From sequence record OR455461.1: 64,000 bases of DNA. The stretch is one strand, 5' to 3'. The position numbers and the translations under genes were made by a program. This DNA is from Staphylococcus phage AH12. Of this stretch, positions 1-7,711 are shown piece after piece; the first letter of the stretch is position 1; every line of letters begins with the position of its first letter. The notes under the pieces were generated by a model. The model was given only the letters and a program-made list of their open reading frames with translations, searched no databases and was not told where the DNA came from.

Positions 1-412
1 ATTTAATCATATTTACATAATAAGTTTTTCCATCAATATTAAATTCAAGAGTATTATATACTTCCTTATTAGCATACATAGATATTTCAGACATTTGCTC
101 TTCAGAGAATAATGAATCATCAGAACTATAAGCCCATTCCAATAATATTTCACGTTTAACTGCTTCTAAAGAACCAATTTGTCTTTTTTGTTTTGCTAAC
201 CAATCTTCATCTTTACCTAATTCTTTATATGAATATTCTATATACATGAATTCATTATTTGAATTATCTTCCATGTATTTTTCTAATTTAGAAATTCCTT
301 CTTCTTCACCATTAATGAAATAATCATATATTTTTTCATTCCATTGAGCTGCTTCATTCATTTGTTGAAAGAAAAATTGCCCATTGTCTTCATCAAGAGT
401 ACTCAAATTTAT
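1..412 (-). CDS. terL: Large terminase subunit, exon 3 (partial; continues past the window start)
   Basis: Minus-strand frame is open from about 412 to position 1 (TLDEDNGQFFFQQMNEAAQW...). It follows intron core A and continues the T4 gp17-like alignment after the TTTP motif (T4: TTTPNGLNHFYDIW). Confidence 0.5.
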   Translation of the reverse strand, partial: MNLSTLDEDNGQFFFQQMNEAAQWNEKIYDYFINGEEEGISKLEKYMEDNSNNEFMYIEYSYKELGKDEDWLAKQKRQIGSLEAVKREILLEWAYSSDDSLFSEEQMSEISMYANKEVYNTLEFNIDGKTYYVNMIK

Positions 413-570
413 TTATTCTTTATAATTATATAAAGTTTAGACTATATCACAATAATTATAATAATTATTATCCATTATTTAGTCGTTGAACATCATTTAG
501 ATGATGCTGATTAATTTTATAATATTTCAGCAATTAAATAGAAAAGCCCAGTTAATTTTAGGCGTAGTTG
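405..570 (-). ncRNA. Group I intron core A (ORF-less) in terL; boundaries approximate
   Basis: Reverse complement carries P4/P6-like TTAATTGCTGAAAT...AATCAGCATC (502-536), R-like GTTCAACGACTAAAT (477-491) and S-like GATATAGTCT (439-448). Same family as the six other copies in the window. Confidence 0.6.
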
Positions 571-718
571 TAATTAGAAGTCCATAAGGAGTTCCGTTTC
601 TTTTAGCAATTGCAGAAGCTGTGGAGTTAGCTGGACGCATGGCCTCAAACATTGTTTGATTATGTTTAATAAATGCCCACTCATCTAGCCAGAATAATGG
701 CACAGTACCACCTCTCAT
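555..718 (-). CDS. terL: Large terminase subunit, exon 2 (Walker B and TTTP coupling motif); ends approximate
   Basis: ORF 527..718 encodes LFWLDEWAFIK...GLLITTTPK. This matches the T4 gp17 Walker B and C-motif region (MIYIDECAFIP...IIITTTPNG). It lies between intron cores B and A. The in-frame tail INWAFLFNC* probably runs into intron sequence. Confidence 0.55.
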
Positions 719-925
719 TTTTCGTTAACTATATGAATTTCATATAGATCAGACTATATCTTAACAATTTCAATGATATTAATATTTAGTCGTTGAACTA
801 CTATTTTAAGTAGATGCTGATTTATTTAATGATTTTCTCAGCAATTAATTAATTTTATAGCGAGCTAAGGTTATAAATTAATTTTTAAAAATAATTTCCA
901 TATATGCCATGGAATGATTTAACCC
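715..925 (-). ncRNA. Group I intron core B (ORF-less) in terL; boundaries approximate
   Basis: Reverse complement carries TTAATTGCTGAGAAAATCATTAAATAAATCAGCATC (813-848), GTTCAACGACTAAATAT (784-798) and GATATAGTCT (751-760). The upstream exon stops right after KAG*, and the next exon starts at MRGGTVPLFW. Confidence 0.6.
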
Positions 926-1569
926 GCTTTATTTGCTTGCTCTTTATTGTTTGGAGGACTGACTGTCTTAATAGTGTTATTATTGGATGCTAATCTAAAT
1001 TCATTTTCAGCATCTTTATCATTCTTATCACCAAAATTTGCCATCACATAATCCGGTAAACATTTTTCTTTAAATAAGTTCTTAAGACGTTTTAAATTCT
1101 CCACTGTATCAGCATAAGCTTTATGTGTAAATAACATTGTATAGTTATTACCTACTAATAACATAATCCATGAATAATAACATACTGCAGAATATGTTTT
1201 ATAGTGCTGACGAGGTAACATTATTGCAGTATCTAAGTTATGCAACATACAGAATGTCATAGCCAAGTTACCTCTATGAAGTTCATACATTACTTTTCCA
1301 CCTGGAACAGGAACTCTAATAACTTCTCTTAAATAAAACCATATATTAAGTTTAGCTTCCCTAATAACACGAGTTTTCATTTCATTATCTAAATCTTCAT
1401 CCCAAGGATCAACACCAATTAATTTCTTATCATATAGAGTTAATGGTAAACCATAATTTTGTATATTATTGTCTTTAAGTTCTTTAGCAACTTTTAAAAA
1501 GCTTATATTATTAGTCTTATAATCGTAATAAACTTTTTTCTTTAATTTTGTTATAGCCATAATCTTCAT
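919..1569 (-). CDS. terL: Large terminase subunit, exon 1 (ATPase Walker A); 3' end approximate
   Basis: 216-aa ORF contains LPRQHYKT, which resembles the terminase Walker A motif (T4 gp17 SRQLGKT). It is followed by an intron core, then exon 2 with the Walker B motif. Confidence 0.6.
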   Translation of the reverse strand: MKIMAITKLKKKVYYDYKTNNISFLKVAKELKDNNIQNYGLPLTLYDKKLIGVDPWDEDLDNEMKTRVIREAKLNIWFYLREVIRVPVPGGKVMYELHRGNLAMTFCMLHNLDTAIMLPRQHYKTYSAVCYYSWIMLLVGNNYTMLFTHKAYADTVENLKRLKNLFKEKCLPDYVMANFGDKNDKDAENEFRLASNNNTIKTVSPPNNKEQANKAG

Positions 1570-1583
1570 TCACTTCTTTCTTA

Positions 1584-2753
1584 CTATCTTGTCTTAGTAT
1601 TAATTCTATTAGAATATTTTATTATTCTTTGAATTTCATCTAATTGTTTCTTGAGTTCTTTTTTAACTTCATTAGAATTATTATTGTTACTAATTTCAAA
1701 TTTTAATGTATTAATAACTGCATCAATTGAATCTGTTGGATAATCTTTATAACTTTTAATAAAACCACTCATAGGGTATAAAAGTCCTCTCATAGCTTTA
1801 GCTATTAAATTATTAGATCTTTTTTCAGATTTCATTCTAAATGCTTTATACACTAAATCATAAAATTTAACCATTTCTACAGAATATCCATAAAGAGCAG
1901 GTAATTGGTTAGCAGATCTTTCTGAAAGATTATAATCCATAGTAGTTTTTCTATTGAAACTTGCACTTGTTAGTAACATTCCTGTTCCCATAAATGAACC
2001 CATTGATAAGCTAGCACCTATAAACACAGCAGTTAAACACATTACTAATGTTGACATTGCAAGAATCATAGGAGCTGCTAATACTCTATTTCTTCTATTG
2101 TCAGTTTCTATTTCTTTAGTGTACTTAAACTGTACTGGTTTATTATCTCTATATTTGAGTTCGAATGTAGGAGTTTTGCCACCAGAGAGTACATTAATTT
2201 CTACAGGGAAAAATAAATTATGTCCTATTTCATGTAATAATAAAAAAGTATACATTCTACCATTAAGAGTAGTAAATTCTTTTTGACCTGATGCTTTCTT
2301 TTCGATAAAATATCTCAATGAAGATAATTCAATATTTACTTCAATTTCTCTAGGTTTAGAATAGTAAACACCATTCTTTTCTTCAATAACAATTTTAGTG
2401 ATTCCATCTGTAATATTTCTAATATCTTCAGGTTTAATTAATGTGTGTGCTACTGAACCTACTTTAAATTTATCTTTTCCACGTTTATCAGCTTCAATAA
2501 ATTTTAATTTCATATTAGTGTTAAATAATTTCTTAGTAATATCTGATATTCTTTTTGCAATATCATTATATTCATTCTTATCAATTACATCAAAATCAGA
2601 TTTTTCGAAGTTATATTTACTAATTAATGAATCAAATTCTTCATCTATTTCTCTAAGTAATGAAGTATTTTTACCAAAGTTAAAAGCATCTTCATTTAAA
2701 TTCATTACTTCTTTTATTTTTTTCATTTGCATTTCTTCTTGTAAAGATACCAT
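1584..2753 (-). CDS. Putative Zn-metallopeptidase (HExxH) with a C-terminal hydrophobic segment
   Basis: 389-aa ORF with FLLLHEIGHNLF (an HExxH motif) and a hydrophobic stretch VLAAPMILAMSTLVMCLTAVFIGASL. Lies between the capsid gene and terL. Confidence 0.45.
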   Translation of the reverse strand: MVSLQEEMQMKKIKEVMNLNEDAFNFGKNTSLLREIDEEFDSLISKYNFEKSDFDVIDKNEYNDIAKRISDITKKLFNTNMKLKFIEADKRGKDKFKVGSVAHTLIKPEDIRNITDGITKIVIEEKNGVYYSKPREIEVNIELSSLRYFIEKKASGQKEFTTLNGRMYTFLLLHEIGHNLFFPVEINVLSGGKTPTFELKYRDNKPVQFKYTKEIETDNRRNRVLAAPMILAMSTLVMCLTAVFIGASLSMGSFMGTGMLLTSASFNRKTTMDYNLSERSANQLPALYGYSVEMVKFYDLVYKAFRMKSEKRSNNLIAKAMRGLLYPMSGFIKSYKDYPTDSIDAVINTLKFEISNNNNSNEVKKELKKQLDEIQRIIKYSNRINTKTR

Positions 2754-2761
2754 ATAATTTT

Positions 2762-2809
2762 CCTTTCTTTTTATAAAATAAACCCATACACCTCAGAGAG
2801 ATGTATGGG
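2762..2809 (-). terminator. Rho-independent terminator after the major capsid gene
   Basis: Hairpin CCCATACACCTCAGAGAGATGTATGGG (2783-2809), followed on the minus strand by TTTATTTTATAAAAAG. Confidence 0.5.
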
Positions 2810-2837
2810 TATATAAATAACAAAAGTAAAGTTACTC

Positions 2838-4433
2838 TTAACGAGCGTATACTGAACCGTTGTTGTTTTTGATTGTAATACGTCCAATGATCGGAACGAA
2901 TGATTCAACTGTATATCTACGAGTCATCATCATGTTAGGAACATTAGGGTTACGAGTATTCAAGTATCCTCCACCATTTACAACATTGAATGTGTAAGGG
3001 TAGAACATGAATGTTTTATAGTTGTCTTGTTGAGGAATTGCAATAATAGTCAATTCACCTTGACGAACTAAGTCAGAACCGATAATACGGTAGTTAGCTG
3101 TACCAGAAGCAGCACCTAATGAATAGTTAATTTTAATTCCATTAGAGTAAGAATCTTCAGTACCACCATTAAATGTCCAAGAAACGTTAGGGATTAAACG
3201 AACGTCAACTGGGTTACCTACGATAACGAATTGTACATCGTAAAGTTTGTAATCATTTTTCATTGATTGAGTAGTATGGTCAATTACTTCACGTAGACCT
3301 TCTAACCAATCTTTAGGGTGAGCACTGTAATCACTATGTGGATAAACATCGAAGCTGAAGTGATATTTAGCGTCAGTTTCTCTGTATTCGTGATCTAAGA
3401 ATTCAATGATATCTAAGTCAACTTTTTGACTAGATAATTGAGACATTGTTTCAGATAAACGAGCAACTCCATCGATATCATAAGTAGCTTTCATATCTTG
3501 AATTACTTCAAGAGGTACTGTAGCCTCGATGTGTTGAGCTGTATCGATAGTGATATCTTTACGATCTAAACCAAGCTCGATGTTAGTAGCTGAAGTATGT
3601 TGTTCAGAAGCTACATAACCTTTAATTTTAATTGCTTCTAATTTACCAGAAGTTGAAGCTAAAGCTAAAGTACCGTTAGAAACGTCAACTTTACCTAATA
3701 CTGTATCAACAGCAACTTCACCGTCACCATTTGTAGGGTATTTAACTTCTGCCATTAGAGAGTCATTTTCCATTTTAATAACTTGAGAACCTAATTCAAC
3801 AAATCCTTTTTCATTTGTACGAACATCAAAAGAATCGCTCCATTTAGCTTCTACAACTTTGAATTTACGGTCAACACGATCAATGCCTTTACGAACTTCT
3901 TTACCTTCTTTTAAGCCATCGAATAAATCGTAAGCTTCAACTTTACCACCAGAAATTGCAACTTCTTCTTTAAGAGGAACTAATCCTACTAAAGTTTCAG
4001 GTGTGTTATTAATTGATTCAGGTAATGCATGTTTGTTTCCATCAGCATCTACAACGTAAGGTGTTAAGATTGGCACTGTGAATTGTGGTTTATTAGCAAC
4101 TTGAGTTGGTAAAGCTTCAGTTAAAGCTAAACGAGCCCAAAGTTTAACTAAGATAGGCATAGATAATGAAGCATAAGGTTGGATAGGCCCCATTGAAGAC
4201 TCTAATAAGATTTCTTCACGAGTGTTATCTAACATACTTTCTAAAGAAAGTTGCTCCTCTTCATCAAAACCTTCTAATAATTGATCTTTATAACTTTCAA
4301 ATACTACGTCATCAGTAGCAATTGAAGCGAAATCATTACCAACTGTACTTAATTTATATTGTTCGTTGATATTTTGTTCGATATCCTCTAAGAGTTTAGA
4401 GAATTCATCTTTAATTCTATTTGCACTCAACAT
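2838..4433 (-). CDS. Major capsid protein, T4 gp23-like
   Basis: 531 aa. The C-terminal region YRIIGSDLVRQGELTIIAIPQQDNYKTFMFYPYTFNV matches T4 gp23 YRVYIDQYAKQDYFTVGYKGPNEMDAGIYYAPYVALT. NPNVPNMMMTRRYTV matches NFQPVMGFKTRYGI. Size is similar to gp23, a terminator follows, and an acidic scaffold-like gene lies upstream. Confidence 0.6.
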   Translation of the reverse strand: MLSANRIKDEFSKLLEDIEQNINEQYKLSTVGNDFASIATDDVVFESYKDQLLEGFDEEEQLSLESMLDNTREEILLESSMGPIQPYASLSMPILVKLWARLALTEALPTQVANKPQFTVPILTPYVVDADGNKHALPESINNTPETLVGLVPLKEEVAISGGKVEAYDLFDGLKEGKEVRKGIDRVDRKFKVVEAKWSDSFDVRTNEKGFVELGSQVIKMENDSLMAEVKYPTNGDGEVAVDTVLGKVDVSNGTLALASTSGKLEAIKIKGYVASEQHTSATNIELGLDRKDITIDTAQHIEATVPLEVIQDMKATYDIDGVARLSETMSQLSSQKVDLDIIEFLDHEYRETDAKYHFSFDVYPHSDYSAHPKDWLEGLREVIDHTTQSMKNDYKLYDVQFVIVGNPVDVRLIPNVSWTFNGGTEDSYSNGIKINYSLGAASGTANYRIIGSDLVRQGELTIIAIPQQDNYKTFMFYPYTFNVVNGGGYLNTRNPNVPNMMMTRRYTVESFVPIIGRITIKNNNGSVYAR

Positions 4434-6376: not shown

Positions 6377-6600
6377 ATGTCTAAAGATATTAAAGCTTAC
6401 ATTATTAATGAATCTAATACAACTTCTCAACCAGAAGTAGTTCAAGATAATAATAAATCAGTTAGATTCATTGCTGAGTTACAAGAAGCTGATAGACAAA
6501 ACCGTAATGGTCGTGTTTATCGTAAAGATGTTATCCAAAGTGGTTTAGATAGTCCAGTAGTACAAGAAAAATTAGCAAGAAGAACTTTTTATGGTGAGTT
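6377..6600 (+). CDS. Prohead core protease (T4 gp21-like), exon 1
   Basis: VRFIAELQEADRQNRNGRVYRKDVIQ...TFYGE aligns with T4 gp21 GIFLQAEVVNRNKRLYPKRILEK...ALGELNHP. The ORF stops right at the intron. Confidence 0.6.
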
Positions 6601-6756
6601 TTAGGTTAAAATGGCTCACGTTAAATTATATTAATTGCTGAAATCTTATTTAAAGTAATCAGCATCAACTTAATACAAGTTGTTCAACGACTAAATATAT
6701 AACCTAGATGATATAGTCTAATCTTTATTAAAATAATAAAGAATAATAATTTGCAG
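6600..6756 (+). ncRNA. Group I intron core C (protease intron 1, ORF-less); boundaries approximate
   Basis: TTAATTGCTGAAATCTTATTTAAAGTAATCAGCATC (6631-6666), a variable hairpin AACTTAATACAAGTT, GTTCAACGACTAAATAT (6682-6697) and GATATAGTCT (6709-6719). Interrupts the protease at the catalytic His codon (exon 2 resumes at GHP). Confidence 0.6.
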
Positions 6757-7013
6757 GTCATCCTTTAAGTGATGAACCTAAACGTCAAATGTATATTGAT
6801 CAACGTAATATTTCTCATATTATCACTAGAACTTGGTGGAATGGTAATAAATTAATGGGAGAAGTAGAAACAGCTCAAACATCAGCTGGTAAGGATATGA
6901 AAGGTTTAATTGGACAAAAATCTGATGTATCTTTCTCAATGCGTGGTTTTAGTAAAATAGAAAGAAAACCTAATGGTGAAGTAGAAGTTACTAAACCTTT
7001 AAGATTAATCTGT
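6757..7013 (+). CDS. Prohead core protease, exon 2
   Basis: Frame is open from 6750 (..GHPLSDEPKRQMYIDQRNISHIITRTWWNGNKLMGEVE...SFSMRGFS). Matches gp21 NHPP...MWWKGNDVYGRARV...GVSSRGLGS, including the catalytic His and Ser regions. Confidence 0.6.
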
Positions 7014-7200
7014 TAAATTATAGCAGCTTTATATAGTGATATATAATGAAAAAGAATATTAATTGCTAAGAAGTTTAATTAAGCCAATTAGCATCAACTT
7101 AATACAAGTTGTTCAACGACTAAATATATTCGCTCTTACTAAGAGTATGATATAGTCTCGTCTATATGGAAACCATATAGCTAAGATGTACGTATGACTG
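7014..7200 (+). ncRNA. Group I intron core D (protease intron 2); boundaries approximate
   Basis: TTAATTGCTAAGAAGTTTAATTAAGCCAATTAGCATC (7059-7095), GTTCAACGACTAAATAT (7111-7127), GATATAGTCT (7149-7158) and a P9-like CTATATGGAAACCATATAG. Confidence 0.55.
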
Positions 7201-7360
7201 GGTAAAAAATTATTGCTTAGTATAAATAATATTAATTGCTGGAAATCTTTATTAAGATAATCAGCATCGGATTAAATTCCGTTCAACGACTAAATATATT
7301 ACCTAATATAAATTAGGAAGATATAGTCTCGTCTATATGAAAATCATATAGTTAAGATAA
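7200..7360 (+). ncRNA. Group I intron core E (protease intron 3); boundaries approximate
   Basis: TTAATTGCTGGAAATCTTTATTAAGATAATCAGCATC (7233-7269), a variable hairpin GGATTAAATTCC, GTTCAACGACTAAATAT (7281-7297) and GATATAGTCT (7320-7329). A micro-exon between cores D and E is possible. Confidence 0.55.
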
Positions 7361-7711
7361 CGTGTAATTCCATCACATCAAGATTCTTATATCCAAAATA
7401 TAATTTCAGAGAATCATAATAATTACAATACTAGTGATTTACAAATGGTTAATGAATCAATTGATATGTTTTCTAACGGTAAAGTTACAGAATTTTCTCC
7501 TAGAGAAGTTTTAACTTATATTAAAGAAAATTCAGATAATATCAAATATATCGCTGAAGATATGGGATTTGATAAAGCTGATGAATCTAATATCATTTAT
7601 GATAAAGGATCTCAAATAGCTTCAATTAAAGAAAGTAATAAAACTATTAAAGTTTTCTTAGAAGAATCTGTTCTTAATGGACTTGATGATTTCTATAGAA
7701 ACTTTAAATAA
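7361..7711 (+). CDS. Prohead core protease, terminal exon
   Basis: Frame is open from 7361 (RVIPSHQDSYIQNII...MVNESIDMF...FYRNFK*). It directly follows intron core E, so the annotated Met at 7445 is probably internal. Confidence 0.5.
   Translation, partial: RVIPSHQDSYIQNIISENHNNYNTSDLQMVNESIDMFSNGKVTEFSPREVLTYIKENSDNIKYIAEDMGFDKADESNIIYDKGSQIASIKESNKTIKVFLEESVLNGLDDFYRNFK

Follow-up and report, generated by a model that had tools for sequence, protein, structure and literature searches.

Genes for the large terminase subunit (terL) that are split by introns are already known, both in the clade of Staphylococcus jumbo phages and in other jumbo phages. In this respect nothing conceptually new is found in the terL gene described here, which lies at 1569..1 on the minus strand of a 64,000-nucleotide (nt) stretch of Staphylococcus phage AH12 (OR455461.1; hereafter the window) and contains two intervening sequences. 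In the accessible text of Korn et al. (bioRxiv 10.1101/2020.12.14.422802), the Staphylococcus jumbo phages of the MarsHill group are AR9/PBS1-like, their large terminase, prohead protease and RNA polymerase subunits are disrupted by introns, and the mature TerL protein could not be reconstructed for want of an intact homologue. The clade and the gene are the same as here, and that text describes detection by protein alignment only, without intron type or structure.

The Jug jumbo phages carry about 18.5 group I introns per genome with an average length of about 206 nt; their terL is in two to three pieces, and its splicing was confirmed by metatranscriptome reads (Sci Adv 2026, PMC12880540). 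Their predicted hosts are Bacteroides or Phocaeicola, unlike that of the Staphylococcus phage described here. Among the Bastillevirinae, terL has up to three group I introns, with a small internal exon, exon skipping and splicing in vivo (NAR 2025, PMC11878797); these introns average 802 nt, whereas those in terL of the window are 156-206 nt long and lack an open reading frame (ORF). T4-like phages harbor ORF-less introns that coexist with endonuclease-bearing copies and free-standing endonucleases, terminases being among the targets, and ORF-less group I introns can be mobilized by trans-acting endonucleases (collaborative homing; review PMC3984707). The likeness to the present case is the occurrence of ORF-less and endonuclease-bearing copies.

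With a probability of about 0.88, we conclude that terL of the window carries two miniature ORF-less group I introns that are removed from one pre-mRNA at the RNA level. Gene callers report terL, here and in the relatives, as two to three fragments, and default Rfam shows no intron. What is useful in this locus are the exact junctions, the structural support and the failure of the Rfam threshold, and the most interesting aspects are the miniature size of the introns and the proliferation of their family. Exact junctions permit full reconstruction of TerL, which was impossible in the original description of the clade, and TerL serves as a standard marker in phage phylogeny and in the prediction of packaging type.

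Organization of the terL gene and its introns

The intron boundaries come from aligning the gene, as nucleotides and as protein, with terL of phage S6, which is uninterrupted; for exon 1 the ORF list was used as well. The resulting division of the gene, all on the minus strand, is as follows.

1569..922, minus: terL exon 1, 216 codons, with the Walker A motif LPRQHYKT
921..716, minus: intron 1, 206 nt, 21.8% GC, at TerL site G214/R215, terminal G (omega-G) at 716
715..560, minus: terL exon 2, 52 codons, RGGTVPLFWLDEWAF...LLITTTP, with the Walker B and TTT coupling motifs
559..404, minus: intron 2, 156 nt, 18.6% GC, at TerL site P266/S267, omega-G at 404
403..1, minus: terL exon 3, starting STLDEDNGQFFF... 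(AGU ACU ...), cut by the window edge

The candidate start codons of terL are ATG 1569 and ATG 1560. Exon 1 ends in ...AAAGCGGGU, reading ...GCG GGU, and the ORF 1569..919 is closed by a TAA (921-919) that consists of the first three bases of intron 1. Exon 2 is contained in ORF 718..527, starts with AGA GGU and ends in ...ACG CCU, and exon 3 leaves the window near residue 402, out of ~678 expected. The predicted exon-exon junctions are ...AAAGCGGGT|AGAGGTGGT... after removal of intron 1 and ...ACTACGCCT|AGTACTCTT... after removal of intron 2, with the predicted junction peptides …ANKAG-RGGTVPL… and …LLITTTP-STLDEDN…. Splice sites at G729 and G418, where the Rfam alignments end, had been considered and were rejected because in-frame stops remained; they were replaced by G716 and G404.

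A search by tblastn with a provisional joined protein shows that TerL, with ~677 amino acids (aa), is uninterrupted across both sites in S6, DC4 and SA1. The joined 402-residue product is colinear with this intact homologue, aligning with residues 5-400 of S6 TerL without a gap and with 329/395 identities (83%). The spliced TerL matches PHROG 2 (E = 1.4e-28, residues 13-369, a range with the Walker A, Walker B and coupling motifs) and PHROG 32359 (E = 6e-55), both described as 'terminase large subunit', while no Pfam family was found and a PDB sequence search returned no terminase. On the basis of these similarities the gene is assigned to the large terminase. A first-pass annotation of the window had claimed a terL gene split in three by two ORF-less group I introns, and both sequence and structure bear this out. 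The Walker A motif that it placed in exon 1 is present in ORF 919..1569 on the minus strand, and exon 2 contains the Walker B and TTTP motifs as LFWLDEWAF and LLITTTP. Its statement that exon 3 continues a gp17-like alignment holds for the TerL alignment, which does continue; the 'gp17-like' part is limited to motif order and PHROG membership.

The first intervening stretch contains, on the minus strand, TTAATTGCTGAGAA (849-836), AATCAGCATC, GTTCAACGACTAAAT (798-784) and AAGATATAGTCT (762-751). The second contains the same elements, with R at 490-477 and GATATAGTCT at 448-439, the sole difference being its start, GTGATATAGTCT, and together the two stretches form a direct repeat. The strings quoted by the first-pass annotation for the P, Q, R and S elements were found in both, and its comparison of R and S with the Tetrahymena type proved apt, GUUCAACGACUAAAU and AAGAUAUAGUCU being almost base-for-base like the consensus of the group I model RF00028. 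No ORF of at least 30 aa lies inside either intron, in agreement with the claim that they encode no endonuclease. Allowing up to two mismatches, TTCAACGACTAAAT occurs 9 times in the window, compared with 1.43 expected, and none of 100 shuffles reached 9.

The paired segments (P) and the internal guide sequence (IGS) of the two introns are located as follows.

865-859, minus: intron 1 IGS GCUCGCU, pairing 7/7 with the exon end AGCGGGU (928-922), with U922.G865 at the splice site
921-866, minus: intron 1 P1 loop, 56 nt
853-848 with 783-778, minus: intron 1 P3
843-838 with 820-815, minus: intron 1 P4
813-798, minus: intron 1 P6
797-784, minus: intron 1 R and P7 5' strand
777-761, minus: intron 1 P8, weak, with one U-U mismatch
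760-751, minus: intron 1 S and P7 3' strand
747-729, minus: intron 1 P9
728-716, minus: intron 1 tail and omega-G
549-546, minus: intron 2 IGS GGGC, pairing 4/4 with exon GCCU (563-560), with U560.G549 at the splice site
542-537 with 476-471, minus: intron 2 P3
532-527 with 510-505, minus: intron 2 P4
503-491, minus: intron 2 P6
490-477, minus: intron 2 R
470-450, minus: intron 2 P8, 9 base pairs (bp)
448-439, minus: intron 2 S
435-418, minus: intron 2 P9
417-404, minus: intron 2 tail and omega-G

In both terL introns, as in five other family members of the window, the 5' exon ends in U and the intron ends in G. The guide follows the exon that it pairs with: at the site of intron 1, the exon Ala codon is GCG in the window, GCA in MarsHill and LY01 and GCC in Madawaska, and it is matched by C, U and G in the guide, respectively. 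P9.0, formed by the two bases before the terminal G with J7/9, has 2/2 pairs in both terL introns; it is fully paired in 10 of 13 tabulated introns and at one of two positions in the other three. P10 is longer in intron 1 (5 bp) than in intron 2 (3 bp). The P7 helix, A-C(bulge)-GACUA / UAGUCU, in which a guanosine-binding G-C pair would be expected beside the bulge, agrees with the RF00028 consensus and is invariant in the family, so it is uninformative for covariation. Single-sequence minimum-free-energy folds recover P1, P4, P6, P7, P8 and P9 (z = -3.1 and -2.6), and P2 is absent from both introns.

We infer splicing by group I chemistry, in infected cells, from this arrangement. In the proposed mechanism, terL would be transcribed as a single pre-mRNA, and a message that can be translated would arise only once both introns have been excised from the RNA. 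P1 would be formed by the last bases of the upstream exon and the internal guide, the cleavage site being marked by a U.G wobble, and the intron would adopt a stripped-down core of P3-P4-P5-P6 and P7-P8-P9, with a P3/P7 pseudoknot and without P2. Free guanosine bound in P7 would presumably cut the 5' splice site; the terminal G of the intron would then take the place of guanosine, aided by the two-base P9.0 and by P10, and the exons would be ligated. The terL introns are thus presumed to be self-splicing; protein-assisted splicing is also possible, peripheral stabilizing elements being almost absent.

Covariation of the core and alternative explanations

The core was compared across 25 copies from the window and from loci of eight relatives, amounting to 19 distinct sequences, with positions fixed by invariant motifs and without alignment fitting. 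In these anchor-based counts the core covaries. P3 is fully paired in 17 of the 19 distinct introns, with 9 different P3 sequences, and has on average 5.9 of 6 pairs within an intron, compared with 2.9 when strands of different introns are combined. In P4 a single exchange of G-C for A-U is seen. Counted from its fixed ends, P6 has 3-7 bp in every one of the 19 introns, among which it occurs in 14 sequence versions (mean 4.9 bp, compared with 0.7 in shuffled sequences). The hairpin scores of P8 and P9 also exceed those of shuffles (11.8 vs 7.5 and 17.0 vs 10.1); P8 begins directly after P3' in 14 of 15 distinct sequences, and P9 mostly starts 3 nt past S (12/18; range 0-4).

An independent covariance model, built from 15 introns of the relatives with the two terL introns left out, gives exactly seven significant matches in the window, among them intron 1 at 105.2 bits (E = 2e-17) and intron 2 at 72.5 bits (E = 3e-11), and the next-best match has E = 0.26. 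In the alignment of 64 distinct family members to the model, 93.6% of the cells pair, compared with 62.3% in column shuffles and 32-50% in slid controls, and two-sided changes are observed in 27 of 31 pairs. A consensus fold by MAFFT and RNAalifold recovered only P4, P5, P7 and P8, because of misalignment in the variable hairpins and because P3/P7 forms a pseudoknot; it was superseded by the anchor-based counts and the covariance-model alignment. Group II intron models gave no Rfam match, either at the gathering threshold or in E-value mode. The other Rfam matches in 1..1700 (freshwater-2, snoRNA, SmY and TeloSII) were dismissed as chance, having E values of 3.7-6.5 and lying inside coding sequence.

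Several observations weigh against the assignment to group I. At the gathering threshold, Rfam gave no group I match in the whole window, despite the seven family members in it, and a routine Rfam scan, which the first-pass annotation had proposed as a test in the form of a search with RF00028, would have appeared negative. Below that threshold, RF00028 scored 27.0 bits (E = 2e-4) at 658-418 for intron 2 and 16.5 bits (E = 0.29) at 926-729 for intron 1, with a cutoff of 50. These matches came only from an E-value-mode search of 1..1700; the same mode on the whole window yielded nothing at E <= 1 because filters discarded weak matches. In the RF00028 alignments R, S, P4, P7 and P9 align well, while the P1/P2 region of the model is misplaced into exon 2 and both alignments lack nearly all of its long P8 region (about 60 positions). 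The 64-member alignment, being fitted to the model, leans towards structure, whereas the anchor-based counts do not. As to the introns themselves, P5 has only 2-3 A-U pairs in both, and P8 of intron 1 contains an internal U-U mismatch. No GNRA-type loops that would stabilize the fold were seen by eye in either, so autonomous activity in vitro is uncertain.

Part of this bears on the question of whether the terL introns, while belonging to group I, are autonomous. Their reduced periphery might mean that splicing needs a phage or host cofactor, either a maturase-like protein or a chaperone, and the missing P2, a P5 of 2-3 bp and the weak P8 of intron 1 would be in line with such a need. The low GC content of the introns (19-22%) points the same way, but other AT-rich phage group I introns (T4 and Twort) self-splice in vitro, which counts against it. 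The full catalytic core, the guide pairing and P9.0 are also all conserved. Since some introns of the Bastillevirinae are spliced in vivo and not in vitro (PMC11878797), a cofactor-dependent splicing would not be without parallel, and we regard it as unlikely but well within reason. The weak P5 and P8 of intron 1, together with the position of both introns below the Rfam cutoff, could alternatively indicate decayed relics that no longer splice, terL being a pseudogene or the phage defective. This is very improbable: the reading frame stays open through all three exons, which are 83% identical to S6 and free of insertions and deletions relative to it, the core motifs are exact, P1 is compensated to the exon sequence of its own genome, and equivalent introns occur in terL of plaque-forming isolates.

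We give almost no credence to an explanation without RNA splicing, in which TerL would consist of separate assembling polypeptides, or the gaps would be crossed by an intein or by translational bypass. It is true that the GenBank records of the relatives give the terminase as two separate coding sequences (CDSs) named 'terminase large subunit', often with a 'homing endonuclease' in between, and that an ATG (718-716) stands just before exon 2 of the window. However, the intron's final three bases make up this ATG, upstream of which no ribosome-binding site is seen, exon 2 has only 52 codons and carries Walker B by itself, and the 5' end of exon 3 has no start codon. Read-through past exon 1 meets TAA at once and past exon 2 meets a stop after 8 codons; therefore, an intein is excluded. 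Nor are these gaps bypass elements, given their length of 156-206 nt and their covarying ribozyme fold. Removal of two group I introns from the terL pre-mRNA is the explanation that we retain.

Related introns in terL of other phages

By megablast, positions 1..3000 of this AR9-like phage match only Staphylococcus jumbo phages. The top match is vB_StaM_PB50 (94.9% identity over 81% of the query), followed in order by Machias, LY01, S6, DC4, MarsHill, PALS_2, Madawaska and SA1. The genes in and around terL in these relatives are annotated as major head precursor, hypothetical protein and 'terminase large subunit', and the GC content along the window is 19-31%. Comparison of the terL genes reveals the following intron sites, numbered on S6 TerL.

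Site A0, after S210: PB50, Machias
Site A1, G214/R215: window, MarsHill, LY01, Madawaska
Site A2, inside codon 219: MarsHill, LY01, Madawaska, PB50, Machias
Site B, near R241/P242: PB50, Machias, LY01, MarsHill
Site C, P266/S267: window, LY01, Machias, PALS_2
Site D, after residue 540: LY01; beyond the window here

Judged by these sites, terL is an intron hot spot in the clade. The combination in the window, with A1 and C occupied and both introns ORF-less, is shared by no database relative, while same-site introns are present in the phage isolates MarsHill, LY01 and Madawaska. The terL introns of the relatives are either ORF-less (127-161 nt) or ORF-bearing (1210-1511 nt). Intron 1 is 75% identical to the 1253-nt intron of Madawaska at A1, which has a homing endonuclease ORF of 1023 nt in its P1 loop, where the 56-nt P1 loop of intron 1 sits. 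Over its whole length, intron 2 has 74.5% identity with the 161-nt intron of LY01 at site C; PALS_2 (1511 nt) and Machias have 1.5-kb ORF-containing introns at this site, and the group I intron of PALS_2 resembles intron 2 in its 5' end and guide. Because the same-site sister introns of Madawaska (A1) and PALS_2 (C) hold ORFs, the terL introns of the window most plausibly derive from mobile introns by reduction and are non-autonomous. No endonuclease specific for A1 or C was identified in the window.

Upstream of about position 962 the window is ~94% identical to Machias. The exon sequence beside intron 1 (962-922 and 715-690, minus strand) is unlike that of all relatives, reading NNKEQ for TNAES and RGGTVPLFW for RGSTVPMVW, and this diverged stretch includes the target of the neighboring site-A2 intron. 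Co-conversion or loss of an endonuclease target could account for the divergence.

Tandem mini-introns are seen in terL of the relatives, separated by an exon of 14 nt in MarsHill (L003, 6081-6378), LY01 (L006, 2974-3270) and Madawaska, or of 29 nt in PB50 (L001, 6186-7577) and Machias. The A1 intron of MarsHill and LY01 is only 127 nt long and lacks P9. At site B of PB50 (L001, 7641-7816) and Machias (L002, 8520-8695), the reading frame needs a 5' exon ending in ...AUGAG, with G in place of the near-universal U; moving the cut to follow the next U would put the exons out of frame. Between close relatives, two introns that occupy one site can have entirely different versions of a single helix, a version that is in turn shared with an intron at another site: the A2 intron of Madawaska has the P6 of the protease introns described below, and its A1 intron has the P6 of MarsHill A2 (Madawaska L007, 3841-3999; MarsHill L003, 6222-6378). 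Such sharing suggests that segments have been exchanged among intron copies.

The intron family in other genes and genomes

The terL introns belong to an ORF-less family of 127-206 nt with seven copies in the window. The other five copies lie in two genes.

6377-7711, plus: prohead scaffold/protease gene, with three family introns
6600-6753, plus: protease intron, 154 nt
7014-7192, plus: protease intron, 179 nt
7193-7203, plus: protease micro-exon of 11 nt, TATGACTGGGT, between the last two, tandem introns
7204-7362, plus: protease intron, 159 nt
55022-54841, minus: intron of the non-virion RNA polymerase beta-prime gene, 182 nt
54840-54835, minus: beta-prime micro-exon of 6 nt, GCCGAT, encoding 'AD' of the catalytic ADYDGD motif
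54834-54655, minus: beta-prime intron, 180 nt, in tandem with the preceding one

The spliced protease CDS has 843 nt, the length of the intact DC4 gene, and its protein is gapless across the micro-exon relative to S6, SA1, PALS_2, DC4 and MarsHill. A 15-nt version of this micro-exon was rejected because it contained a stop; the 11-nt version derives from P9.0 and the alignment of homologues. With the 6-nt exon, beta-prime aligns over 76 residues (228 nt) without a gap to six uninterrupted homologues at 92-93% identity. The beta-prime introns appear to have a P2 hairpin, whereas the terL introns do not. The terminase, the prohead protease and the RNA polymerase would each depend on several excisions at the RNA level, some of them with only 6 or 11 nt of exon in between.

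A BLAST search with either terL intron matched only five Staphylococcus jumbo phages, at 9-32 places per genome, and gave no match in S6, DC4, SA1 or PALS_2. The result for DC4 fits the paper on that phage, in which Rfam found no introns in the genome. Among IMG/VR contigs, the exact pattern from Q to R was found in 87 stretches, mostly from contigs of 200-400 kb, and the covariance model has 279 matches in 707 kb of these stretches, often in dense tandem arrays. The same family has multiplied strongly in huge phages known from metagenomes.

We tentatively raise the broader possibility, about which we remain rather doubtful, that the terL introns belong to a non-autonomous family of minimal group I ribozymes that resembles miniature inverted-repeat transposable elements. 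Its members, of 127-206 nt, would lack P2 and have a vestigial P5, some also having a vestigial P8 or no P9. They would be present in dozens of copies per genome, within catalytic motifs of essential genes of jumbo phages of unrelated hosts and with exons down to 6 nt, and they might spread through trans-acting endonucleases of sister introns or by reverse splicing, with the guide tracking each new site. Should copies prove able to self-splice without help, they would rank with the smallest complete group I ribozymes in nature. The natural series of 127-206 nt cores, rich in covariation, offers a useful source of compact ribozymes for engineering. Our literature search gave nothing usable on the smallest group I intron or on micro-exons between phage group I introns.

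Further observations concern individual records. The Machias protease record joins only three pieces, and the micro-exon may have been missed there. In the S6 protease (L096, 1-720), the part homologous to the spliced window protein does not begin until residue 74 of the latter and directly follows a separate ORF upstream; the first protease intron site of S6, in which terL is intact, may therefore hold a large insertion. In the 400-kb contig IMGVR_UViG_3300008672_000001 (L055, 10865-12250, minus strand), seven matches to the model are packed into 1.4 kb at spacings of 23-67 nt, and the array reads as an RNA polymerase beta-prime gene whose exon text includes FDGDTVSIR.

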